Virus record (IMG/VR): IMGVR_UViG_3300045988_039715
Location: 1 to 44,378 of that record
Strand: one strand, 5' to 3'
DNA: 44,378 nt
From: a virus
Shown here: piece after piece, positions 5,235 through 25,521 of the stretch
How the letters are laid out: each line of letters begins with the position of its first letter
How positions within the stretch are numbered: the stretch's first letter is position 1
Notes under the pieces: generated by a model
What the model was told of the DNA's origin: nothing
What the model saw: the letters and a program-made list of their open reading frames with translations, nothing else
Databases searched by the model: none
Translations under genes and position numbers: made by a program

Positions 5235-5594
5235 ATGCTGTCAGAAAAGAATTATTACGCTTTGCTGGAATATCGCAGAGAAAAATACACCGGGCCAAAA
5301 ATAACCGAACAAATCAGGTATTTCAAAGAGTGCGGCTACATTCGCCCTGTAAGCCACGAACTCAAAGAAACAGCCGGCGAATTTTGCATGAACCCAACAG
5401 TGTGGATCATCACCCCACGCGGTGAAGATTCTTTAGCAGAGTTTGAATATCGCGCCGAACAAGATACCAAGAGCAACGCCGAAAAGAAACAGGAGCGTAT
5501 ATTTCAAGTGCTTTTGGTTTTTCTTGGTGCGATTATCGGTCTTCTTATTGAACACTTCGCCGGAATTGCCGATTGGATTAGTTCTTTCTTTTGA
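5235..5594 (+). CDS. opposite-strand moron: small protein with C-terminal transmembrane helix
   Basis: 119 aa of protein-like composition with a C-terminal FQVLLVFLGAIIGLLIEHFAGI helix. Has its own promoter and RBS. Confidence 0.6.
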   Translation: MLSEKNYYALLEYRREKYTGPKITEQIRYFKECGYIRPVSHELKETAGEFCMNPTVWIITPRGEDSLAEFEYRAEQDTKSNAEKKQERIFQVLLVFLGAIIGLLIEHFAGIADWISSFF

Positions 5595-5596
5595 AG

Positions 5597-5806
5597 TCAT
5601 GTGCCCTCCTCTCCCTCCGGCGGGCAACTCCTCAAGATAATCTTTTCTTGGATGTTTTCGATCTTACAAATCAGTCTGCACAATAGTCTAATGCGCCTGT
5701 CGCATTTCTCGCAGCAACTATGTAAATCGCAAAATGCTTTTTTATAGCCGTATACTCGGCATCCCCTCCGTCGGCTATCCTCCAGTTGTCTTCTCGTAAT
5801 TTTCAT
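5597..5806 (-). CDS. small Cys-rich hypothetical protein
   Basis: ATG at 5806 behind a GGAGGGAGA RBS, with an ATGA start/stop overlap to the upstream ORF. Cys cluster CDLHSCCEKCDRR. Confidence 0.55.
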   Translation of the reverse strand: MKITRRQLEDSRRRGCRVYGYKKAFCDLHSCCEKCDRRIRLLCRLICKIENIQEKIILRSCPPEGEEGT

Positions 5807-5955
5807 GCTTCTCCCTCCGGCGGGCGGCGGTATAGGTTGAACTCCAATCTCTTGCACACAGCCCGCTCACAGTCGGACAATAGTAACCTCTCGAATAGCC
5901 ACCACGGCGTAATGGTCAGAAGAATAATCCACGCTATGTCACTCAGTAATCTCAT
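5803..5955 (-). CDS. 50-aa membrane peptide (not in the ORF track)
   Basis: Translated by hand: MRLLSDIAWIILLTITPWWLFERLLLSDCERAVCKRLEFNLYRRPPEGEA. Fills the gap between neighbouring genes and is stop/start coupled. Confidence 0.4.
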   Translation of the reverse strand: MRLLSDIAWIILLTITPWWLFERLLLSDCERAVCKRLEFNLYRRPPEGEA

Positions 5956-7944: not shown

Positions 7945-8536
7945 CACAAATTCCTCCCCATTGTTCAGCCATAGCCAATGCAAGCCCCGGAAAGGTTTTA
8001 GCGCGATTTTTCTGTCTGTCCTTCCCGCCTTTCATAAACCACGTCCCGGCCTCATGGCAACCACATTTAGGATCTACGATATTAGTTGGTTCCAGCGGCG
8101 GCAGTCCTCTCAGCCATAGGCGGGTTTTCTTCTGTACCGGGTGCCCGAACATCCAGGGCTGAACCTCCTGAGTATGCGGCGGCATTTCATAAATTCTGCT
8201 GGATACCGGGTTCTCTACGCAGATGTGAGGGCAGTCAGCGTTCAGGAATTTTAGAAAAAACTTCTTTGCTTCCAGTCCCTTTTGATAACGTTCTTGATTC
8301 AGCACACCGCCCCGAAACAGGTGCTTTGCTCCGGCGTTTGACAGGTATGTACAAGGAGGGAATGCAAGAATCATATCCCACCGCATTTTCAGCAGTTCCA
8401 GCGCGTCACATTGGATGTGCCATTCAGGTTTTCCCCCAGAGCACGGCTCAATATCACAGCTGTACGCCTCGTGCCCCAGCGCCCGGAACGCTTTGCATAC
8501 CTCCTGAGACTCTTCACAGGCTACCAGAACTCTCAT
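7937..8536 (-). CDS. short DNA (cytosine-5) methyltransferase-like protein
   Basis: FPPCTYLS (PC motif IV), VENPV (ENV motif VI), QKKTRLW, and a C-terminal FPGLALAMAEQW. Confidence 0.6.
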   Translation of the reverse strand: MRVLVACEESQEVCKAFRALGHEAYSCDIEPCSGGKPEWHIQCDALELLKMRWDMILAFPPCTYLSNAGAKHLFRGGVLNQERYQKGLEAKKFFLKFLNADCPHICVENPVSSRIYEMPPHTQEVQPWMFGHPVQKKTRLWLRGLPPLEPTNIVDPKCGCHEAGTWFMKGGKDRQKNRAKTFPGLALAMAEQWGGICDG

Positions 8537-8586
8537 AGCTTCACCGCCTCTTTGTCGCCCAGCAGGGCACGCTTAATATCGTCCAT
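8533..8586 (-). pseudogene. 17-codon remnant resembling the N-terminus of the Lar-like gene
   Basis: MDDIKRALLGDKEAVKL compared with the Lar-like N-terminus MDDVKLALLGNHEAARRL. Its stop overlaps the methyltransferase ATG. Confidence 0.4.
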
Positions 8587-8613
8587 ATGGTTCGTAATGT
8601 ATGTATTCATTCA

Positions 8614-8943
8614 TCACAGCCTCCCATCCAGCGCCGCACTCAACCTGTCGGCGTTTTCCAACGTGCGGTTTTTCAGATAGGCGTTTTGGGCGGCTTCAAC
8701 TGCTTTATATTTGTCGGTCCAATACCTCCCCATTTTTGACCAACTCCCCATCTCTTTCTTAGCTTTTTCGTAAGAATAAGTCATCTGTCCCTTTTCCAAA
8801 ACTGCCTGTTCCACAGATAAAACTCCAGTTCTTATATCACGATACATAGATCGCAAAAATTGAAAGGCAAGACAATTTGGAAGGGTTAATCCGTCTGGCA
8901 TTGGACCACCCTGTTGGGCTTCCCGTTCGTATGGAAAAACCAT
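8614..8943 (-). CDS. hypothetical protein
   Basis: 109-aa ORF with an AAAGGAGAG RBS. Confidence 0.65.
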   Translation of the reverse strand: MVFPYEREAQQGGPMPDGLTLPNCLAFQFLRSMYRDIRTGVLSVEQAVLEKGQMTYSYEKAKKEMGSWSKMGRYWTDKYKAVEAAQNAYLKNRTLENADRLSAALDGRL

Positions 8944-8977
8944 AATAATCTCTCCTTTGTTACCGCTGAAACCGTTT

Positions 8978-9144
8978 GTAACCAGTGTGCGGTTACGCCT
9001 TTAAGCATACTCCCACAATGGTTTCCGAGTTTTGTAACCGCGTAACCAAACTTTTTTTCTTTCAAAAAATAAAAATTATGTGTACGCAATTTTTTTATTT
9101 TATAGAAAGTATTAAAAATGCGGTTACAGCGGTTACAAGGTTAC
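8978..9144. repeat. GGTTAC/GTAACC iterons flanking a ~70-nt AT-rich core (origin or operator array candidate)
   Basis: GCGGTTAC at 8989, 9120 and 9129, and inverted at 9034. GGTTAC/GTAACC also at 8978, 9042 and 9139. AT-rich core at 9048..9119. Confidence 0.6.
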
Positions 9145-9149
9145 ACCTA

Positions 9150-10994
9150 CTAAGGAAGTAGGAAATCTTCAATGCTGTCCAATTCATCATCAAAATTAGA
9201 CATTTTGAGCCAAACACACCTTAAAACTCGTCCATTTATTCGTTTTGGCTTTGTTGGTCTGCCATCGCTTGCACAGACGATGTTACCAGTATTCTTGGCC
9301 CAGCCAAGAAAAGCTGAGGCATTGTAACCCTCGTCGGCCAAAATTTGATCGAACTTGGACCGGATAATATAGGCGTAGTCATCGTCCAGATCACCCCACA
9401 CCTCACCCTGGTGAGCATCTGCGTCTAACCCAAATCGCGCCTGGTTGATGTTGATAAAATCATAAAGGTATTGAAGTGCCCGCCCATTCTGGTTGACTGT
9501 CTCCTTAGAGACAAGATAGGGGCGAATATCCTCCGGGCGGAGTAGAACACCATCCTGGAAAATCCATTCCTCGGTAAGTCTGTCAGCCGCCAAAATGAGA
9601 GCTGCTGAAGCCGTCTGCTTGTCCATCGTATCTCCGGTCTTCAATGCGTCCTGCATGGTCTCCTGTATGCTCTGAACGCGCTCGAAAGCTCCGTCTTCCA
9701 TGAGGTGCGCTACAAACTCTTTTCCAGCAAATCCATAGTTGCTGTAAAGTGTGGTCGCCACCAGCTTAGGGTCATCAAACAGATGCTCCGCATGGCAATC
9801 AATCTCAATTGTTCGGTTAACTGCCCCCGCTCCGCTGTTAGGAGATATAATAGGGAACTCACCTGTTGTGATGATGCAGTTGCGCCAAGTCGGGGTTTTC
9901 TGGAGTCCTCCTTGTTTCCGTCCCCTGGCACGGCCCACACCCTCAGACAACTGGTAAATCATCCTGTCGAAGTCCTTGCGGTTGTCCTTGATTAGTTGGA
10001 GTTCATCAATGATAAGTGGAAGAGAATTACAGAACGCAGCGCCAAGCTCTTTACCAACCTCCGTGGCGTTAAATGTCTGGATGTACTTACCTATCTCTGG
10101 GTCGGCCCATACGCTGGCGGCAAGAAGAAGGCCTACGGTTTTACCTGTTTCCGTCCCGCCCCACAGGTGAACGAAAAATGGTAAACAATTACACGGCTTG
10201 ACCAGAACTGAGGCAAAGGACGCAGCCAGAACAATACGGGCAATTACATTACCGGGAGTGTTCCCTGCCCTTACTGCCTTGACGGTATCCAGCCACACGT
10301 CACGTCTTCCATGTTCCTGGATACTTTCAAAGCGGGTCCTGTACTCTTCCTCTCCGTCAAAAACTAAATCTTCTACATACGGAGAAAAGCCATAGTCGTC
10401 AATCCAGCCCAGCCGCCCAACGCTGGACACCTCCGGGATCTGATCGTAATTAAGTTGTTCCACGTCAGCCAAATATCGGATCAGTGGCTTGCTCGTCTCA
10501 CTATTGACCATAATTCCATATTTTGAAAGCCCAATTATAGACCGACTGTCTGAAATAACGTTACGATCCTCTATGATGGTATTCCACCGTTTTCCAAGGC
10601 TGAACGCCAGTTTGACTTTGTGGATTCCTGTATCGATATTGACTAATCTCTGCACCGGCATAATCGGATGATAACAAGCTACGACCTCAAACCCAACCTT
10701 GTCTGTTCCGTATATTCCGGTGTCTGTGGCCGTCCAGCCTCCACAGTCTAGTTCTAAGGCCTGTCCTGTGAAGTCTGTCCGGTTAAAGCCGGGAGTCACA
10801 GTTCCGCTGACAGTCTCAACATAAGCTTTAAATAGGGCTGCCAGATTTCTGATTCCGACTGTTTGAGCCTGGACAGACATGAGCCCTAAAAGCTGCTTCA
10901 TCTCAAACTTGTTTTCTTTGTGCGCATACAGGTATTCAAATGGCTTTGTGGTCGTTAAATAGTCATCCCGTGTGTAAGAGGGGATTTCATCCAA
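9150..10994 (-). CDS. SF3-type replicative helicase (DUF927-like)
   Basis: Walker A WGGTETGKT and Walker B LPLIIDELQ. 614 aa, immediately downstream of the CHC2 zinc-finger gene. Confidence 0.7.
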   Translation of the reverse strand: MDEIPSYTRDDYLTTTKPFEYLYAHKENKFEMKQLLGLMSVQAQTVGIRNLAALFKAYVETVSGTVTPGFNRTDFTGQALELDCGGWTATDTGIYGTDKVGFEVVACYHPIMPVQRLVNIDTGIHKVKLAFSLGKRWNTIIEDRNVISDSRSIIGLSKYGIMVNSETSKPLIRYLADVEQLNYDQIPEVSSVGRLGWIDDYGFSPYVEDLVFDGEEEYRTRFESIQEHGRRDVWLDTVKAVRAGNTPGNVIARIVLAASFASVLVKPCNCLPFFVHLWGGTETGKTVGLLLAASVWADPEIGKYIQTFNATEVGKELGAAFCNSLPLIIDELQLIKDNRKDFDRMIYQLSEGVGRARGRKQGGLQKTPTWRNCIITTGEFPIISPNSGAGAVNRTIEIDCHAEHLFDDPKLVATTLYSNYGFAGKEFVAHLMEDGAFERVQSIQETMQDALKTGDTMDKQTASAALILAADRLTEEWIFQDGVLLRPEDIRPYLVSKETVNQNGRALQYLYDFININQARFGLDADAHQGEVWGDLDDDYAYIIRSKFDQILADEGYNASAFLGWAKNTGNIVCASDGRPTKPKRINGRVLRCVWLKMSNFDDELDSIEDFLLP

Positions 10995-19499: not shown

Positions 19500-19535
19500 A
19501 AAATAAAAGCCCCCGGTGCTACCAACACCGAGGGC
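19498..19535 (-). terminator. intrinsic terminator oriented for the minus strand
   Basis: 10-bp stem at 19509-19518/19526-19535 with one mismatch. The U-tract exists only on the minus strand (plus AAAAAATAAAA at 19498-19508). Confidence 0.45.
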
Positions 19536-19662
19536 GGGCCGTAGATGCTACCAACATCAACGGGAAGCAAAGCACCCCAAACCGATAAATCCAAGGCACC
19601 TTTGCGCCCTTTTATTGTATCATACTGGGACCACGGGTGCAACCATAAAAAGGAGGAGCACC

Positions 19663-20712
19663 ATGAAGCGAGCAAATGGGACCGGAACTGTGGTCAAACT
19701 ATCCGGTAACCGGAGCCGTCCATACTGTGTCAGAATATCCCAGCGAGATAAGCGTGGATATGTAATCCAAACAGCCGTCAGTTACCACGCAAAGGCCGCC
19801 GAGGCACAGGCCGCCCTGGATGAATTAGTCAAGAAAATCCAAGCTGGGAATCATATCAGCGCCGATACAATCAATACGACATGGGGGCAGGCTTATGAGA
19901 TATGGTCCGCTCGAAAGTACAGGATAGCTGGACCTGCCTCCGTGGCATCCTATAAAGCCTCCTGGAGCCGTGTAGGGGCTCTAGCTGACCGGAAGGCCAG
20001 GAGTATTACTATTGATGATCTCCAGGCTATCATTGACCAGGATGCGGCGGATGGTATGTCTAGCTCGTCCATTAATAACGACTGCATCCTTATCAAAGCT
20101 CTGTTTAAATTTTTAATGGAACGTGACATTGTTGCGAAGGACTACTCCGCTTTTATTCAGGTCCCGAAGGTCGGTCCGAAGCATACCAAAGGTGCCTTTG
20201 ACGACCTACAGATGGCAAGACTGGAGAAGTTGGCTAAAGAAGGATTCCCATGGGCTGACACGGTGCTCATGCTCTGCTATACCGGCCTCCGCATCAACGA
20301 GTTTTTGTCCCTCACTCCATTCAACTTTGATCCAGACACAGGATGCTTAACTGGCGGCAGCAAAACTGAAGCTGGGAAGGGTAGGACCGTTCCTGTTCAT
20401 CCAAAAATCCGTCCATACTTTGACCGTTGGATGGCAGATCAGGCAGATACTATTATCCATCAGGACGGAAATCCCGTATCAGACAGATGGTATCGGGCCT
20501 CCGCATTCAAAGGTGTCATGGACGCTCTGGGGGTGCCTGATGCCACACCACACTGGTGCCGCCACACATTCGTAACCAGAGCTAAAATAGCTGGGGTAGA
20601 TGAGATGGCCCTAAAGTTCATTGTCGGACACTCCCAGCGGGGAAATATCACCGCGCAATACACTCACCCGGACCCCGCCTGGCTTGCCACCGAGATGGCA
20701 AAAATTGCGTAA
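19663..20712 (+). CDS. int: tyrosine recombinase (phage integrase)
   Basis: ATG at 19663 behind an AAAGGAGGAG RBS. C-terminal HWCRHTF...GH...Y catalytic pattern. Confidence 0.85.
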   Translation: MKRANGTGTVVKLSGNRSRPYCVRISQRDKRGYVIQTAVSYHAKAAEAQAALDELVKKIQAGNHISADTINTTWGQAYEIWSARKYRIAGPASVASYKASWSRVGALADRKARSITIDDLQAIIDQDAADGMSSSSINNDCILIKALFKFLMERDIVAKDYSAFIQVPKVGPKHTKGAFDDLQMARLEKLAKEGFPWADTVLMLCYTGLRINEFLSLTPFNFDPDTGCLTGGSKTEAGKGRTVPVHPKIRPYFDRWMADQADTIIHQDGNPVSDRWYRASAFKGVMDALGVPDATPHWCRHTFVTRAKIAGVDEMALKFIVGHSQRGNITAQYTHPDPAWLATEMAKIA

Positions 20713-20735: not shown

Positions 20736-20767
20736 GTTAGTAACGGGTTAGTAACACGGTTAGTAAC
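20736..20767 (+). repeat. three tandem GTTAGTAAC repeats (candidate integrase arm-type sites)
   Basis: Copies at 20736, 20747 and 20759. A fourth copy lies at 20939-20947. Confidence 0.6.
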
Positions 20768-20779
20768 AAAAGTCGGGAA

Positions 20780-20809
20780 AGTGCTGATATACCGGCACTT
20801 TTCTTTTTT
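20780..20809 (+). terminator. intrinsic terminator after int
   Basis: 7-bp stem at 20780-20786/20793-20799, followed by TTTCTTTTTT. Confidence 0.6.
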
Positions 20810-20810
20810 G

Positions 20811-20835
20811 AAAATTTAAGAAGTTCTTAAATTTT
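20811..20835. other. 25-bp perfect AT-rich palindrome (attP core candidate)
   Basis: AAAATTTAAGAA-G-TTCTTAAATTTT, read directly. Lies between the repeat clusters. Confidence 0.4.
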
Positions 20836-20938
20836 TAATCGATTATCTTCATATATCGAGAGCAAAAGTTATCTTCCAGTTTATAAATTCTCATTTTCTT
20901 CAACTTTTTTCTCTATATCATATCACACAAAATCTTGC

Positions 20939-20947
20939 GTTAGTAAC
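20939..20947 (+). repeat. fourth GTTAGTAAC copy (P-prime arm candidate)
   Basis: GCGTTAGTAACAAA matches the left-hand copies. Confidence 0.5.
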
Positions 20948-20950
20948 AAA

Positions 20951-20976
20951 TCCGCCCCCCTTTTATAGGGGGCGGA
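20951..20976 (-). terminator. terminator closing the minus-strand island operon
   Basis: 9-bp GC stem TCCGCCCCC/GGGGGCGGA directly after the stop at 20982. TTTGTT follows on the minus strand. Confidence 0.55.
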
Positions 20977-20981
20977 CTAGT

Positions 20982-21329
20982 TTAGAGGGTCCGAATTTTC
21001 CGCATAACACCTTCGTAGACACGTGGGTTTACTGTGTGGAGCGTGTCCATCAGGTCATCCATGATGGACCACGCCGCGCCTTGATCTTTGCCATAGACAG
21101 TGCGTAGAAAATCACTATCTCCGTAGTCCTCAACCACCGAGGAATACTCGGCATCTGCCGAGGTAGCAGAGTAGGCCGCCTCATAGGGCACTTGGCGCTC
21201 CTGACGGTCCATGCGGTCCCGAATGGTATACAGGTTGGCCAGCTTTGCGTAGGCCGGGTAGCTAGATTCTCCGTACTCCAGACGGGCAATCTCAATGTCT
21301 ATCTCCTTGCGGTCAAGCATGGGGGACAC
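20982..21329 (-). CDS. island protein h: acidic hypothetical protein
   Basis: 115-aa ORF. The C-terminal AAWSIMDDLMDTLHTVNPRVYEGVMRKI pattern recurs in Clostridia prophages (from memory, unverified). Confidence 0.65.
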   Translation of the reverse strand: MSPMLDRKEIDIEIARLEYGESSYPAYAKLANLYTIRDRMDRQERQVPYEAAYSATSADAEYSSVVEDYGDSDFLRTVYGKDQGAAWSIMDDLMDTLHTVNPRVYEGVMRKIRTL

Positions 21330-21335
21330 CCCCTA

Positions 21336-21758
21336 TCAGTCTCGGCCCAGCTCGCTCATAAAACGGCGGATTGCTTCACGCTCTCGGTCAGTGGTGGCAT
21401 TTTCCATCATCTCACGAGCCTGTTCCATCATAGCCTCTTTAGCATCATGGCGGCTATACCCTCCATCTCTGCTATAGTCACCACGGTTGTTATAACCGTC
21501 TCGGCTATAGTGGCCTCGAACATAGTGCTTACCACGATTAGCATAACTGGAGCCACGATTATAGGAGCCGCGTCCCTCCCAGTCGCCCGCCTCAGAGTAG
21601 CCACCGTCCTCCTCCAGAGCGCAGATTTTATCGATGTTCTTGATGGTATCAGTCAGCTTGTGGACGGTCTCCAGATCACCAGCAGACATTTCAGGCTTGC
21701 GGGCAATCTCGTCCAGTTCGTCCTGGAGCTTATCCTTCAGCTCGTATAGTGCTTTCAT
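21336..21758 (-). CDS. island protein g: helical ends with central R/G/Y/S low-complexity core
   Basis: MKALYELKDKL...VHKLTDTIKNIDKI, then GHYSRDGYNNRGDYSRDGGYSRHD. Confidence 0.65.
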   Translation of the reverse strand: MKALYELKDKLQDELDEIARKPEMSAGDLETVHKLTDTIKNIDKICALEEDGGYSEAGDWEGRGSYNRGSSYANRGKHYVRGHYSRDGYNNRGDYSRDGGYSRHDAKEAMMEQAREMMENATTDREREAIRRFMSELGRD

Positions 21759-21772
21759 AGTATCCTCTCCTT

Positions 21773-22213
21773 TCAGGCTACACGCTCAACAATGAAGTTA
21801 CTGTTGGCTACTAAAATAGGCTGTGTACTGGTGTTTTTTGCGGCAACAGTGACACAGCAGCCACGGGGGACATCTACCACAGCGGAGACATAGATATTAA
21901 AGAAATTCTCCACAGCGGCAGGGGTAACAGTGGCGGTGGATGCGGTCAGCGCCTCACCATTGATGGAGATTGCCGCAGTGATGGCCTCCACGGTCCCGCC
22001 GTCAGGGATGGCGATATTGGCGCCAAAGGAGACCTTGAACTTCGCCCGACACTGGTTCGTAAGCCCCCGAAGAGTCACCAGTCCAGCACCCTCCCGATGT
22101 ACGATGCAGGGCTTGCTCGTGTTGGCCTCCTCGGTAAAGGGCACGTTCTGACCAGCGGCAACGGTTACGATTGCGCTATTTGTGTACTCGGCCAAAAAAA
22201 TCATTCCTTTCAA
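21773..22213 (-). CDS. island protein f: C1q/TNF-like (BclA C-terminal-domain-like) beta-sandwich protein
   Basis: YTNSAIVTVAAGQNVPF...FKVSFGANIA...ISINGEAL...CCVTVAAKNTS...ILVANSNFIVERVA. No collagen-like stalk. The start may be 22204 or 22192. Confidence 0.5.
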   Translation of the reverse strand: MKGMIFLAEYTNSAIVTVAAGQNVPFTEEANTSKPCIVHREGAGLVTLRGLTNQCRAKFKVSFGANIAIPDGGTVEAITAAISINGEALTASTATVTPAAVENFFNIYVSAVVDVPRGCCVTVAAKNTSTQPILVANSNFIVERVA

Positions 22214-22245
22214 AAAGATTAGCGGCGAGGCTATTGCCCCGCCGC
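22211..22245 (-). terminator. internal terminator/attenuator between island genes e and f
   Basis: 9-bp stem at 22222-22230/22237-22245 with one G-U pair, followed by a U-tract on the minus strand. Confidence 0.45.
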
Positions 22246-22308
22246 ATAGTTCAAAATCGGCACGGGGCCGAACATTCCGGTCATGCCGGAAAGTTGATGT
22301 ATTGGGTT

Positions 22309-23067
22309 TTAGCAGCAGCCGCCGCAGGGATTACACCCACAACCGGCATAAGGGTTGGGCACCTGATAGGCCGGAACAGGCATGGGGTTGATGCGGCGGA
22401 TCAGTTCAGCGGTCTGGGCCTCCTGATTGGCGGTGAAGAAAGCGTTCTGTGCCGCCTGGGAAGCCTGGAACTTCAGGCTCTGGTTTTCAGCCGTCAGAGT
22501 AGCAATCTTGTCCTGAGTCAAAAAGTCGAGGATCGCACGGCTGTTGGCGTTCTGGTTGTCGATGATGTCCCTGGTGCTGTTCTGGATGGTATTCCGGGTA
22601 TCGCAAGCCTGGGTAGCCATGTCGTAGCGAACGCCCTGGATTGCTGCCTGGGTAGCCGCGCCCTGGGTGGACAGGTTATAATTCACGCCGTCCACTGCCC
22701 GCTGGGTCTGGCAGCAGCAGTCCTGGAGCTGATAGCCGAGATTGCAGATAGCATTATCCACACCATGGAAGCCGTTGGTTACGGCGGAGAGGATACCGCT
22801 CTGGCCGGTCTGGAGACCGTTCAGCGCAAAGCCCTCGTTGATGTCGGCTCTAGTAGCCCAGCCCTGACCGGAGGGAGAGCCCAGGCCATTGCCGGAGTTA
22901 CCACCCCAGCCGCCGCCATAGCCGCCCCAACCGAACATACCGAAGATCAAGAACAGAATAATCCAGGAGGCCCAATCGCCTCCCCAGCCGCCGAAACCGC
23001 CATTCCCGCCCTGATAGGCAGGCTGCACGGGCATGGTCATTACAGCGCCGTCAGAAGAAAGACTCAT
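22309..23067 (-). CDS. island protein e: Gly/Trp-rich membrane-anchored protein with Cys-rich tail
   Basis: GGNGGFGGWGGDW-ASWIILFLIFGMFGW-GGYGGGWGG, then a central CCC motif, an ENQSLK coiled segment and a C-terminal GCGCNPCGGCC. Confidence 0.65.
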   Translation of the reverse strand: MSLSSDGAVMTMPVQPAYQGGNGGFGGWGGDWASWIILFLIFGMFGWGGYGGGWGGNSGNGLGSPSGQGWATRADINEGFALNGLQTGQSGILSAVTNGFHGVDNAICNLGYQLQDCCCQTQRAVDGVNYNLSTQGAATQAAIQGVRYDMATQACDTRNTIQNSTRDIIDNQNANSRAILDFLTQDKIATLTAENQSLKFQASQAAQNAFFTANQEAQTAELIRRINPMPVPAYQVPNPYAGCGCNPCGGCC

Positions 23068-23125
23068 TGTGTTATCTCCTTTTTTGATTTATTTTCAAAA
23101 CCGTGGCCACGGATTTTGATTGAAG

Positions 23126-23347
23126 TTATTTACCAAACATTCCCCTCATCCCCTCAAACATCCCTGACATCTGCTGGGCTTGTTTCTGGACCTGGTTAAG
23201 CTGATCTTGGGAAATGCGGCCAGATGACACCATCTCTTGTATCATGGCGTTGGGGTCCTTCCCCTTCATCTGGTTCATGAACTGCTGGAATTGCTGCATC
23301 ATATTAGGCTGACGATTGCCGCCCATAGCGTTGAAAAACGGATTCAT
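23126..23347 (-). CDS. island protein d: Q/M/N-rich small protein
   Basis: MMQQFQQFMNQMKG...QLNQVQKQAQQMSGMFEGMRGMFGK. Confidence 0.55.
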   Translation of the reverse strand: MNPFFNAMGGNRQPNMMQQFQQFMNQMKGKDPNAMIQEMVSSGRISQDQLNQVQKQAQQMSGMFEGMRGMFGK

Positions 23348-23817
23348 TCAGCATCCTCCTTCACAGATTTCTTTTTTACAGGGGCCGTCTCTTTGGCGCT
23401 CAGAGCGTCCACACGGGCCGCAAGAGCGTCCAGGTCATCCTTGGTGGCATAGCGGATAGAAGGCTCCTGCGTGGCTGCTGGGGCCGTCCTTGTGGCATTG
23501 CTGCGTTCCACCAGATCATAAATTTTGATGCTGGGCTTTCCAGAGGCATCCGCCTGCTTGAGATAAATAGTGGGGCTGTTGCTGTCCCATAAAGCAACGG
23601 CACTGTTTGGGGCCACCAGATATCCCATGGCCTCCTGCTCTCCATTCACCCAAACCATGGACTGCCCATTTTGCTGGGACTGTACGGGCGGCATTTGTGG
23701 TCCTTGCATGGGAGGTTGGAACTGCTGCCCACGGAGCTGGGCCAGTTGGTCCGGCATGGGCGGCTGGTAGTACATGGGCTGATAGCCCGGATAGTAAGGT
23801 GTAGGTGTATAGGCCAT
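23344..23817 (-). CDS. island protein c: P/Q/Y-rich N-terminus plus small globular domain
   Basis: MAYTPTPYYPGYQPMYYQPPMP..., then VWVNGEQEAMGYLVAPNSAVALWDSNSPTIYLKQADASGKPSIKIYDL. Confidence 0.65.
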   Translation of the reverse strand: MAYTPTPYYPGYQPMYYQPPMPDQLAQLRGQQFQPPMQGPQMPPVQSQQNGQSMVWVNGEQEAMGYLVAPNSAVALWDSNSPTIYLKQADASGKPSIKIYDLVERSNATRTAPAATQEPSIRYATKDDLDALAARVDALSAKETAPVKKKSVKEDAE

Positions 23818-23823
23818 ATCACG

Positions 23824-24198
23824 TCATCCTTTCCAGTAATACAAAACTTCCTTTTCCCCAGAATCCCATGTATCCAGAATCGTCCCGTCGATAATACAGA
23901 CCACATGGGAATTCAGGCCGAGAAGGTACACACCGCTTCTATGGGTCCTGGCAAACTCGTTCACCGTTGTGTGAGGCGGGGCCGGTCTTCGCTCTAGACC
24001 ATACTTGCTCAGATAGCTCCTCCATACCTCGTTGGAGCTTGGCATATCTTTCAGGAGATACCCTTCCAGGCACAGGCCTATGTAGGTGGTGTCCCAGGCC
24101 TGGTCCAAAGCGGTGGAAATAGCTCTAACCGTGCAGTCTCCCACATTCCTGTTGTAAGGGTTTTCGTTGTGCCAGGAATACCTCTCCGTTGTTCGCAT
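23824..24198 (-). CDS. island protein b: possible Cys-His-Asp papain-like hydrolase
   Basis: NVGDCTVRAIS ... SHVVCIIDGTILDTWDSG. The ATG at 24198 has an AGGTGG RBS; the track start is 24216. Confidence 0.5.
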   Translation of the reverse strand: MRTTERYSWHNENPYNRNVGDCTVRAISTALDQAWDTTYIGLCLEGYLLKDMPSSNEVWRSYLSKYGLERRPAPPHTTVNEFARTHRSGVYLLGLNSHVVCIIDGTILDTWDSGEKEVLYYWKG

Positions 24199-24328
24199 GG
24201 CGGCTTTCCACCTCATTCAGATACTTTTCCAAACCATAATCATCCCCCTGTGCCCGAAACCACATAATGGTTTCCCTGGCGCAATCGGGCCGGATGCCAG
24301 CGGCAATCAATCTCTCTAACGGGGTCAT
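24125..24328 (-). CDS. island protein a: small helical protein
   Basis: MTPLERLIAAGIRPDCARETIMWFRAQGDDYGLEKYLNEVE. Its 3' third overlaps gene b. Confidence 0.45.
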   Translation of the reverse strand: MTPLERLIAAGIRPDCARETIMWFRAQGDDYGLEKYLNEVESRHANNGEVFLAQRKPLQQECGRLHG

Positions 24329-24427
24329 ATATCACACGTCCTTTGTATAAAAATAAGGAGTCCGTGAGGAGGGCGGCGACGTGTACCAACCCTTGATCCT
24401 CACGTCCTCCATGTCTATATTGTCGCA

Positions 24428-24463
24428 TAAAAATTCCCCGGCTGGGTACGGTCCCAGTCGGGG
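24428..24463 (-). terminator. intrinsic terminator ending the late operon
   Basis: 11-bp stem at 24436-24446/24453-24463 with one mismatch. AAUUUUUA follows on the minus strand. Confidence 0.6.
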
Positions 24464-24474
24464 TTGTGTACGTT

Positions 24475-24726
24475 TTATGTACGGTTTGTGTAGAGCTTGG
24501 CGGATACATTTTTCACCCGTTCCAAAATATGTTTGAGGTGGTCTCCCACAGTAGCCCTGCGCCATCCAAGCTCCGCCGCAATATCTATCTGACACCATTT
24601 GTCAATAAGATATCGTCTGGCGATCAGTTCGTCGTCCCGGTGGAGTGCGGCCTCATGGATGGCCTCCTCTAGTTGAGAGCGCAAGAGCTTGTCAAGCGAT
24701 TCCGGTAGCTTTACTCTTGCGCTCAT
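24475..24726 (-). CDS. sigma-70 region-4-like small HTH regulator
   Basis: DDELIARRYLIDKWCQIDIAAELGWRRATVGDHLKHILERV. Confidence 0.55.
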   Translation of the reverse strand: MSARVKLPESLDKLLRSQLEEAIHEAALHRDDELIARRYLIDKWCQIDIAAELGWRRATVGDHLKHILERVKNVSAKLYTNRT

Positions 24727-24738
24727 TTGTTCACGTCC

Positions 24739-25521
24739 TTATCTTTTGATTGCCGCCGCTACGGTGGCCAGCTCCTGCCTCGTAACAAATCCTTGGGGCC
24801 TTTCAATGGTCCCTCCAACATCGGTCATTACTCCTGTATCAATAGCCTCCTGGATATACGGCTTTGCCCAATCAGAGGCCGGTTGATTGTTCCGTCTAGC
24901 CAGCCAGTTTTCCATCATGGTATCAAACTGATCCTGTGTCATCTCATCCTCTCCTTCCATCCATCGGGCCACATCCGTCCGGAAATCGTCCATGGTTTTG
25001 CCGAATTTAGGGAACCAGTGAAGGACATCCCCGTGGTTACTGGCAATCCCTCTGCGGTAGCCCTCCTGATGGCAGATTACCACTCCGTCAGCCAACGGGT
25101 CCAGGTTATACTCCTTGCAGAGATAGGCTATCAGTTCCACGGCCTCCTGGTACACCGCCTTAAAATAGCTGGCATCCTCCAGGCCGTCCTCGCTGATTTC
25201 AAAGGAAATGTGGGTATCATTTGCACTGCCGTTCTTTCCTCGGCCACAGTGCCAGCCCCTCCAGTTCCAGGGCAGGGTCTGGACCGTACCCACCGATCCG
25301 TCTGCAAAGAGGCCTACAAAGGCGTGGGCGCACTTTTCCAGTCCGGGCCTGTCCCAATCATTCCCGTACTGATTCCGACCAATTACATCATCTCCGGGCA
25401 CATAGCGGGCCACAGAGGGGTTATTAGCCCCAGTCGAGTGTACCATTACCCCCTGTGGCCGGATGGTCCTCCCAGTCCTGTAACAGTCGTTCTTGGTCAA
25501 ATACTGTTTTCGTAATCTCAT
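24739..25521 (-). CDS. endolysin, N-acetylmuramoyl-L-alanine amidase (Amidase_2/PGRP type) with C-terminal binding region
   Basis: GVMVHSTGANNP ... HAFV ... WHCG ... ICHQEG. C-terminal FVTRQELATV is SLH-like. Confidence 0.75.
   Translation of the reverse strand: MRLRKQYLTKNDCYRTGRTIRPQGVMVHSTGANNPSVARYVPGDDVIGRNQYGNDWDRPGLEKCAHAFVGLFADGSVGTVQTLPWNWRGWHCGRGKNGSANDTHISFEISEDGLEDASYFKAVYQEAVELIAYLCKEYNLDPLADGVVICHQEGYRRGIASNHGDVLHWFPKFGKTMDDFRTDVARWMEGEDEMTQDQFDTMMENWLARRNNQPASDWAKPYIQEAIDTGVMTDVGGTIERPQGFVTRQELATVAAAIKR

Follow-up and report, generated by a model that had tools for sequence, protein, structure and literature searches.

Here we describe a gene cassette in a 44,378-nucleotide stretch of viral DNA (IMG/VR record IMGVR_UViG_3300045988_039715, positions 1 to 44,378; hereafter the window), which holds the entire genome of a temperate phage in the attP (phage) form. 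The minus-strand genes b through h of this phage constitute one mobile, terminator-insulated cassette rather than a collection of unrelated morons. Five slots in the fixed order c-d-e-f-g form its core, to which b and h (or a DUF7841 protein) are accessory. An earlier note on this DNA had described an island of eight genes, a through h, that are transcribed after the lysis genes. All eight minus-strand open reading frames (ORFs) are present at the claimed coordinates and are real genes, but gene a goes with its upstream neighbor s83 rather than with the b-h cassette (Table 1). The same note had placed the genes in a separate att-proximal unit that is bounded by terminators and read outward to the host flank, and integrated copies of related phages and predicted hairpins both agree with this view. 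In the integrated copies, h is succeeded by proC, proB, and other host genes that share its strand. This makes the unit the final one ahead of attR, with outward transcription.

Conservation of gene content and order carries this conclusion. A scan of one genome per species with a profile of the e family, the hallmark of the cassette, returned 221 loci, mainly in Oscillospiraceae, Acutalibacteraceae, Lachnospiraceae, and other Clostridia. Several of the counts given here rest on in-house ORF extraction and on hidden Markov model (HMM) thresholds. The cassette recurs in more than 80 loci from many phages of Clostridia. The order b-c-d-e-f-g(-h) or c'-d'-e-f'-g' was found in about 70 of 80 genome loci identified with e (40-60% identity to e). 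The second arrangement, which we call version 2, is also present at loci that seemingly carry e alone, and mixed versions occur as well. Gene b stands either first or last within the cassette, and the h slot is occupied in some relatives by a DUF7841 protein.

The cassette also behaves as an insulated, mobile unit. In closer relatives with other tail and lysin modules, it stays between the lysis genes and att. When the 62 loci with enough upstream sequence were compared, an endolysin gene was found within 3 kb upstream in 22, and a MuF-type minor head gene was found directly upstream in 12. In the latter group, a scaffold gene follows the cassette in 9 loci, and a major head gene is present in addition in 8. 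For example, the order at locus L021 is terminase, portal, MuF, b-g, tRNA, scaffold, and major head, and at locus L016 the cassette comes after the gene for a polyvalent protein of 2237 amino acids (aa). Of 76 distinct loci, 52 have a terminator-like hairpin at most 300 nt ahead of the cassette, compared with 11 of 76 controls. By pattern reading, 15 of these 52 loci have -10-like (TATAAT-like) boxes after the upstream terminator. Because gene order is kept while the cassette moves between lysis, head, and replication regions, the arrangement appears to be selected, and the products are probably physical partners.

In several loci, the cassette adjoins tRNA or tmRNA genes, or host genes. In four low-GC loci (L041, L053, L079, and L083), a complete tRNA-Cys(GCA) gene in the orientation of the cassette lies approximately 15-270 nt past b at the cassette end, and an integrase gene lies beyond the tRNA-Cys in L083. 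This tRNA could be a phage-borne gene that accompanies a Cys-rich cassette, or it could be the tRNA of the att site.

Purifying selection is evident throughout the unit. Pairwise ratios of nonsynonymous to synonymous substitution rates (dN/dS) computed with six relatives range from 0.03 to 0.41 for a through h where they could be estimated, which indicates that these are real genes. When the window is compared with relative L007, genes d and e are nearly identical (dS of approximately 0.1), whereas b, g, and h have saturated dS values of 1.5-2.1. This contrast, observed across positions 21336-24198, indicates recent recombination inside the cassette, and thus the unit is a mosaic.

Several individual loci are informative in their own right. 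In L001 (Dulem virus 33), an endonuclease gene (9750-10301) is situated between d and e, and in L172 (phage C3_41T2LP) an endonuclease gene annotated as I-HmuI (5270-5890) is located upstream of e. Such genes adjoining e suggest homing into or beside a conserved target. In L061 (Anaerotruncus colihominis JM4-15, positions 7980-9096), e is interrupted by an in-frame stop codon, and all that is left of g' is a fragment beside a tRNA-Val gene. This locus looks like a decaying prophage remnant, and hence the host seems not to keep the cassette on its own. Locus L020 (5692-11434) is a prophage of the cultured isolate Muriventricola aceti H5_61 whose endolysin gene, helix-turn-helix (HTH) gene, and gene a are close to those of the window and whose integrase is nearly identical, and it carries version 2 of the cassette. 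It represents a natural swap experiment, and the isolate may serve as a host system.

The hallmark protein e has a distinctive architecture. Its N-terminal part comprises a short acidic tail with the sequence MPVQPAY, a Gly/Trp-rich flank, a membrane helix, and a second Gly-rich flank. The remainder is a long helical region rich in N, Q, and A that contains a CCC motif, succeeded by PxPVPAYxVPNP and by a C terminus rich in Cys. Glycine accounts for 15% of the residues, there are 10 Cys residues, and the only hydrophobic stretch is at residue 33. The family alignment reveals conservation of the Gly/Trp-rich helix flanks and of the motifs TRDIIxxQNA, ASQxAQN, and PxPxPAYxVxNP. Likewise, of 90 family members examined, 89 contain the CCC motif and 86 have at least two Cys residues within the last 25 aa. 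The family is large: a search of an extensive protein collection returned at least 8000 matches, and grouping at 50% identity gave 1394 clusters.

Attempts to assign e to a described family were negative. The earlier note had remarked on a loose resemblance to YjcZ-type sporulation peptides, for which HMM searches gave no support: neither e nor 28 diverse homologues match the NCBIfam YjcZ/TIGR01732 models at expect (E) values up to 1. Pfam matches to Baculo_PEP_C and HAP1_N look like coiled-coil noise. The Cys-rich tail, the GG motifs, and the C39-like character of b raised the possibility that e is a bacteriocin or another ribosomally synthesized and post-translationally modified peptide, which we rejected because e is 252 aa long with a membrane helix and because no transporter or maturase is present.

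A structured RNA of three hairpins is formed at the 3' end of e, immediately ahead of the ribosome-binding site of f. Hairpin P1 is variable, P2 has the form UGUUCGG..CCGAU, and the terminator hairpin P3 is rich in G+C and precedes a U-run. In the earlier note, this last hairpin had been taken for a terminator that divides the gene unit internally. The hairpin is real (22222-22245), but it is the last of the three in a conserved RNA. Among 35 sequences, compensatory changes are observed in 11 of 14 base pairs. Furthermore, 91.5% of cells are paired, compared with 75% when shuffled and 41-60% when pairing partners are slid, and there are 75 double-change cells where 22 are expected, a value that none of 500 shuffles reached. 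A covariance model of this RNA (R1) finds a single match directly after e in each strongly matched locus, including loci outside its training set. Since the match stays at e even where extra ORFs separate e from f, the RNA is a 3' element of e. Within loci L001-L086, it occurs directly after e.

No match for positions 22197-22307 was found in Rfam 15 at E values up to 10, and the RNA could be a new cis-regulatory, attenuator, or stabilizer motif. Version-2 loci have a different and shorter conserved spacer between e and f', with a G+C-rich hairpin beside the ribosome-binding site. This spacer has the form ttCCCCGAAAGGGtga...TTCGGGGCGG..CCGCCCCtGATTTT-AGGAGG before f' and is seen in L012-L014, L020, L026-L030, L045, L047, L078, L081, and other loci. 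It may be a second conserved RNA element. A search of 20 loci for hammerhead and twister ribozymes near the cassette found none.

Protein f was described in the earlier note as a TNF/C1q-like domain of the BclA C-terminal type, and structure prediction upholds this assignment. An AlphaFold2 model of the monomer, built from f aligned with 32 homologues, is all-beta, with a predicted local distance difference test (pLDDT) score of 88.6 and a predicted template modeling (pTM) score of 0.82. Its best Foldseek neighbors in the PDB are F-BclA and BclA C-terminal domains and ExsF/BxpB/ExsFA, with template modeling (TM) scores of 0.70-0.75. The matches to entries 9h38, 3twi, 9h3d, 8d02, and 7r1m have E values of 4.5e-7 to 1e-5 and TM scores of 0.67-0.75. 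Next in rank are TNF ligands and the knobs of phage fibers (ranks 17, 22, and 23). At the sequence level, f has no Pfam or NCBIfam match, and a phmmer search of the PDB gave chance-level matches only. The alternative occupant of this slot, f', is 131 aa long with CX3CX2C at its N terminus and CC near its C terminus. We considered whether f and f' are diverged homologues and rejected this relationship (hhalign probability 0.3%).

Similarly, the prediction that b is a hydrolase-like protein with Cys, His, and Asp residues is supported by an invariant triad and by a papain-like fold model. Residues Cys22, His98, and Asp109 are invariant in alignments of 35 and 58 sequences, and the AlphaFold2 model made with 57 homologues has a pLDDT score of 93.5. 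Foldseek matches to the PDB are weak (E values of 0.06-2, probability no higher than 0.89), and every one of the top matches is papain-like: Josephin, staphopain, UfSP, a C39 domain, PeiR, and Tae4. On the basis of this model, b is a putative peptidase, isopeptidase, or transglutaminase-like enzyme. The fold is frequent among uncharacterized proteins of many phages. Pfam and NCBIfam searches gave no match that would place b in a named family (C39, CHAP, NlpC/P60, Josephin, or Transglut_core), and a PDB profile search was empty. A possible kinship with the C39-like lysin that bajarodcaudo virus 5 (L090) encodes found no support, as a jackhmmer search from b did not match it.

The remaining products are small and have biased compositions, and the composition claims of the earlier note proved correct by residue counts. 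Protein c, which is A/P/Q-rich overall, has a P/Q/Y-rich head, a conserved beta domain of approximately 50 aa, and a C-terminal helix. It is homologous to c', with which it was merged by iterative jackhmmer search. Protein d is helical and Q/M/N-rich (Q 19%, M 16%) with a KGxDPNAM motif, and a comparison of d with d' for homology was negative. Protein g, R/D/G-rich in overall composition, has helical ends around an R/G/Y/S/D low-complexity core, and its variant g' has an R/Y/D-rich stretch and a C-terminal Pfam DUF7841 domain. No signal peptide or lipobox was found in the translations of the cassette products.

Database searches agree with the earlier statement that no product has a standard phage function. 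No match exceeded threshold in Pfam, NCBIfam, or PADLOC, and b, c, d, e, f, and g all fall in PHROGs families of unknown function. PADLOC gave nothing beyond one weak partial match for c, Pfam scans of b, e, and f' family members gave scattered weak matches only, and PDB sequence and profile searches with f, b, e, c, and f' yielded only chance-level matches. A literature search on DUF7841, phage C3_41T2LP, and exosporium proteins encoded by prophages turned up nothing of relevance. To our knowledge, no known phage function explains the cassette.

The e family also extends well beyond the phages of Clostridia (the hosts of metagenomic bins and archaeal viruses are as given by their records). 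Two Crassvirales genomes, cr1_1 and cr116_1, have clear e-family genes that carry the GenBank label "spike protein/glycoprotein." According to published work (PMC10136315), Crassvirales infect Bacteroidetes. The cr1_1 gene (E value of 8.6e-34 against the family profile) is preceded by a gene for a DUF7841 protein and comes two genes after a putative holin, and the e region falls between the holin and a DUF5675/YkuD-like protein. In cr116_1, e is located approximately 1.2 kb past genes for a holin and an L,D-carboxypeptidase. Genes of this crAss type are found at a minimum of 594 IMG/VR loci, mostly on contigs of approximately 100 kb. A search with the cr116_1 protein identified many more crAss-like genomes and also the Bacteroides phage C3_41T2LP, which was plaque-isolated on Bacteroides uniformis and in which e follows genes for SSB, RecT, a resolvase, and a homing endonuclease. 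Finally, e relatives belonging to family phrog_16490 are present in two viruses whose recorded host is Methanomassiliicoccales. Bacteroides and archaea do not sporulate, and the envelopes of these hosts are very different. The presence of the family in viruses of such non-sporulating hosts is the main argument against the view, advanced in the earlier note, that the cassette remodels spore layers.

Since all these hosts have only one envelope layer in common, the cytoplasmic membrane, we prefer a productive-cycle role that does not depend on the host to host conversion. Specifically, we tentatively propose that the products build a membrane-anchored multiprotein assembly in the infected or lysogenic cell. 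In this model, e would anchor the assembly in the cytoplasmic membrane, and its partners, which lack signal peptides, would come together at the cytoplasmic face of that membrane. In the ExsF trimer, a Pro-rich leader peptide is bound in an inter-subunit cleft (PMC12357932). By analogy, f might form a trimer that docks on the Pro/Tyr-rich motifs of e (MPVQPAY and PxPVPAYxVPNP). The Met/Gln-rich protein d might associate with the N-terminal side of e, and b might cleave or cross-link Gln-rich or low-complexity partners. Cys clusters could provide disulfide or metal bridges. If the RNA at the 3' end of e acts as a partial terminator, c, d, and e would be more abundant than f, g, and h. Our best guess at a ranking places this productive-cycle role at the membrane first, followed by virion cargo, exclusion or defense, an accessory role in lysis, and conversion of the spore or cell surface. 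The alternative left open in the earlier note, an "unknown assembly system," is still the best description of the cassette.

Several observations weigh against such an assembly. First, the docking of f on e, the substrates of b, and the role of d are analogies drawn from fold and composition, and no cassette member has a homologue of known function. Since f and f' are not detectably related, the docking model may fail for f'. Second, the topology cues for e conflict. Among 75 sequences, the 20 residues before the helix are acidic (141 D+E versus 38 K+R) and the 20 residues after it are neutral, which suggests an N-out/C-in orientation. However, the e proteins of Bacteroides and archaeal viruses have 50-70 extra N-terminal residues that lack a signal peptide, which hints at N-in/C-out. 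These extensions contain a KG(V/I/F)DP..(M/L) motif that resembles KGKDPNAM of d. We examined whether the extension of crAss-type e is a fused d and rejected this idea because the similarity is not significant, although a shared KGxDP-type motif remains. Third, four genes after e in C3_41T2LP resemble cassette members by eye: one product is beta-rich with CC..FRLMG like f', one has a small beta domain and a coiled coil like c, one is a 77-aa RDY-repeat helix like g, and one is DUF7841-like. Searches with jackhmmer did not detect these partner genes, and thus homology is not shown. Lastly, a place after a terminator at the end of the prophage would equally fit a moron expressed in the lysogen.

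It is also conceivable, although somewhat unlikely, that the products are virion cargo, ejection, or decoration proteins that act at the membrane of the next host, where the Gly-rich hydrophobic segment of e would insert. The 12 loci in which the cassette directly follows MuF, 8 of them with the scaffold and major head genes behind it, are consistent with this idea, as are its position after the polyvalent protein gene in L016 and the TNF-like knobs found on phage fibers and spikes. A target in the cytoplasmic membrane, which every host has, would likewise fit the spread across phyla. However, the cassette of the window is located past the lysis genes behind a terminator, that of C3_41T2LP is among recombination genes, and the unit is dispensable and mobile. 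Moreover, the classical membrane helix of e would normally enter the membrane of the producing cell.

Superinfection exclusion or another membrane-level defense seems unlikely. Here, e would block the entry of other phages under the regulation of its cytoplasmic partners, with expression from the prophage or early in infection. The cassette does have a moron-like place next to att and bounded by terminators, the -10-like boxes after the upstream terminator (15 of 52 loci) could allow such expression, and its key member is a single-pass membrane protein in a unit that is mobile between phages. Against this stand the single weak partial match in PADLOC (c) and the fixed set of 5-7 low-complexity genes, which is unlike known exclusion systems. 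Further counterevidence is that the cassette occurs within head operons and in crAss-like genomes of the virulent type, and its conservation across unrelated envelopes is hard to square with exclusion that is specific for a receptor or an injection mechanism.

An accessory role in lysis is improbable. In this scenario, e would be a spanin-like or fusogenic protein (like Rz fused to Rz1) that completes envelope disruption or times release. The cassette adjoins the holin and endolysin genes in the window, an endolysin gene lies upstream in 22 of 62 loci, and e is near the holin gene in cr1_1 and follows it at approximately 1.2 kb in cr116_1. In addition, the GenBank label of the crAss-type proteins reflects the heptad-repeat character of e. 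Nevertheless, the hosts are mostly monoderm Clostridia, which have no outer membrane, e has neither a lipobox nor a lipoprotein partner, the cytoplasmic partners have no role in the spanin model, and the positions in head operons and replication regions do not fit.

The proposal of the earlier note, a module for lysogenic conversion that would alter the spore coat, the exosporium, or the surface of the cell, is very improbable as a general explanation. In its favor, the closest structural relatives of f are exosporium proteins (BclA C-terminal domain, F-BclA, and ExsF/BxpB), the richness in Cys, Gly/Tyr, and Gln together with a papain- or transglutaminase-like enzyme recalls coat cross-linking, the products lack signal peptides like coat proteins, and the cassette is att-proximal with many hosts among Clostridia. 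Against it stand the head-operon loci (12 of 62) and the presence of the cassette or the e family in a B. uniformis phage, in Crassvirales and other crAss-like phages, and in archaeal-assigned viruses; the YjcZ/TIGR01732 models have no match, f has neither a collagen stalk nor an exosporium leader, and inspection of upstream regions by eye, as opposed to a formal search, gave no sigma-E/sigma-K consensus or clear CATA---TA box. We also count against it the metagenome-assembled genomes with the cassette that are labeled as non-sporulating taxa, for example Subdoligranulum.

The surroundings of the cassette in the window are given in Table 1. On the minus strand, the order is terminase, head, tail, holin (assigned by a PF16079 match in relatives), Amidase_2 endolysin, an 83-aa HTH gene (s83), the a-h genes, and attP. 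The integrase and repressor-type genes are on the plus strand, and the early genes are again on the minus strand. The three terminators claimed for this region are all stable hairpins with z scores of -3.7 to -6.1 and U-rich tracts on their 3' sides. The attP claim likewise stood, as phage and integrated sequences diverge at the crossover. Flanking this point, GTTAGTAAC occurs four times exactly on the plus strand (at 20736, 20747, 20759, and 20939; 0.12 expected), and these repeats are candidate arm-type integrase sites. The starts of three genes were revised from gene calls in relatives and from ribosome-binding sites, and the likely shorter forms begin at 24198 for b (124 aa), at 22195 for f (140 aa, with ribosome-binding site GAAAGGA), and at approximately 21320 for h (112 aa). 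As a side observation, the window endolysin has a weak match to an S-layer-homology domain (E value of 7e-4), and an M23 lysin in L024 (5413-6018) has a strong one. Such domains on endolysins suggest hosts that have SLH-binding wall polymers.

Table 1. Features at and around the cassette (window coordinates)
Feature	Position	Strand	Remarks
Tyrosine integrase	19516..20712	+	PF00589 in relatives; context
attP region	20736..20947	.	crossover near 20813 (phage and integrated forms compared)
Terminator hairpin closing the unit	20944..20978	-	fold -26.3 kcal/mol, z -6.05
Gene h, 112-115 aa	20982..21329	-	acidic helical; accessory; dN/dS 0.05-0.14
Gene g, 140 aa	21336..21758	-	phrog_28802; core
Gene f, 140 aa	21773..22195	-	stand-alone TNF/C1q-like jelly roll, GCC motif; phrog_20016
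Three-hairpin RNA	22197..22307	-	3' end of e; then ribosome-binding site of f
Gene e, 252 aa	22309..23067	-	phrog_16490; single membrane helix; hallmark
Gene d, 73 aa	23126..23347	-	phrog_22984; core
Gene c, 157 aa	23344..23817	-	phrog_21718; core
Gene b, 124 aa	23824..24198	-	minimal papain-like (model); phrog_3754; accessory
Gene a, 67 aa	24125..24328	-	only first ~44 codons (aa) conserved among relatives; tail overlaps b
RAGATH-31 RNA (Rfam RF03101)	24357..24410	-	84.4 bits (gathering threshold 71.8), E 1.9e-17
Late-operon terminator hairpin and U-run	24428..24463	-	fold -20 kcal/mol, z -3.74
s83, 83-aa HTH protein	24475..24726	-	last gene of late/lysis operon; context
Amidase_2 endolysin	24739-25521	-	late operon

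Between the late terminator and gene a, we found a RAGATH-31 RNA that the earlier note had overlooked. The window copy matches the full length of the model and has a predicted fold of -31.2 kcal/mol (z score of -4.1). On its 3' side is the U-run UUAUUUUUAU, which is followed by the ribosome-binding site of gene a. Near-identical or variant copies are present at the equivalent place in L002-L004, L007, L008, and L018. Gene a and s83 travel together with the phage backbone, ahead of either version of the cassette. The dN/dS value of gene a is 0.05 in comparison with L007, and its product, with the pattern LIAAG..A....GD..GLE.Y, resembles small helical domains of the UBA type. Protein s83 has weak similarity to sigma-70 region 4 and no stronger library matches. 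Linked to each other and to RAGATH-31, s83 and gene a may serve to regulate the unit downstream. No convincing sigma-70-type promoter was seen upstream of gene a in the window by pattern reading only, and a literature search on RAGATH-31 found no relevant paper.

Temperate phages of Clostridia, crAss-like and Bacteroides phages, and viruses assigned to gut methanogens share very few genes. In the broadest form of the proposed model, the cassette would encode a new membrane-anchored protein machine common to viruses of gut Clostridia, Bacteroides, and possibly methanogens, with a keratin- or fusion-protein-like e stalk, a trimeric beta-sandwich adaptor, low-complexity partners covalently matured by a papain-like enzyme, and two structured RNAs that tune expression. 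We regard this full version as possible but doubtful. If true, it would amount to a new functional module of tailed viruses with a status like that of lysis or head assembly and a role common across unrelated envelopes. Solving the cassette could thus add a phage functional module, give roles to the orphan RAGATH-31 and to the new RNA, and account for the presence in viruses of exosporium-type TNF folds and of Gly/Cys-rich proteins that resemble keratin. Culturable systems for this purpose include B. uniformis phage C3_41T2LP and the prophages of A. colihominis DSM 17241 and M. aceti H5_61.

Parts of the cassette and its surroundings can be compared with known systems. Rfam already classes RAGATH-31 as a candidate small RNA, and the present analysis adds its fixed position, with the late terminator on one side and gene a on the other. 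Protein b shares with papain-like and transglutaminase-like enzymes a Cys-His-Asp triad on a papain-like core, but it has only 124 residues, Foldseek E values of 0.06-2, and no family HMM match. Protein f shares the jelly-roll fold of the BclA C-terminal domain and ExsF, and like ExsF it is small, stand-alone, and without a signal peptide. In contrast to BclA and ExsF, however, f has only 10-19% identity to them, lacks a collagen stalk and an exosporium leader, is phage encoded, and belongs to a family whose cassette is also found in phages of non-sporulating hosts. With spanins (Rz/Rz1) and class I fusion proteins, e has in common an N-terminal membrane helix, a heptad-like helical region, Cys residues, and a Pro-rich C-terminal segment. 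Unlike spanins, it has no lipoprotein partner or lipobox and is found mostly in viruses of monoderm hosts. The resemblance is one of architecture only.

At the level of the whole unit, the Dar proteins of phage P1 and MuF-linked effectors are also multi-gene accessory sets, and the cassette stands beside MuF in some phages. There is no homology to these systems, however, and e has a true membrane helix. Morons offer another parallel. Like them, the cassette is bounded by terminators, is present or absent among related phages, has several insertion points, and in the window is att-proximal. A moron usually consists of one or two genes, whereas the cassette is a collinear set of 5-7 genes that is kept across phyla and is also found in virulent-type genomes.

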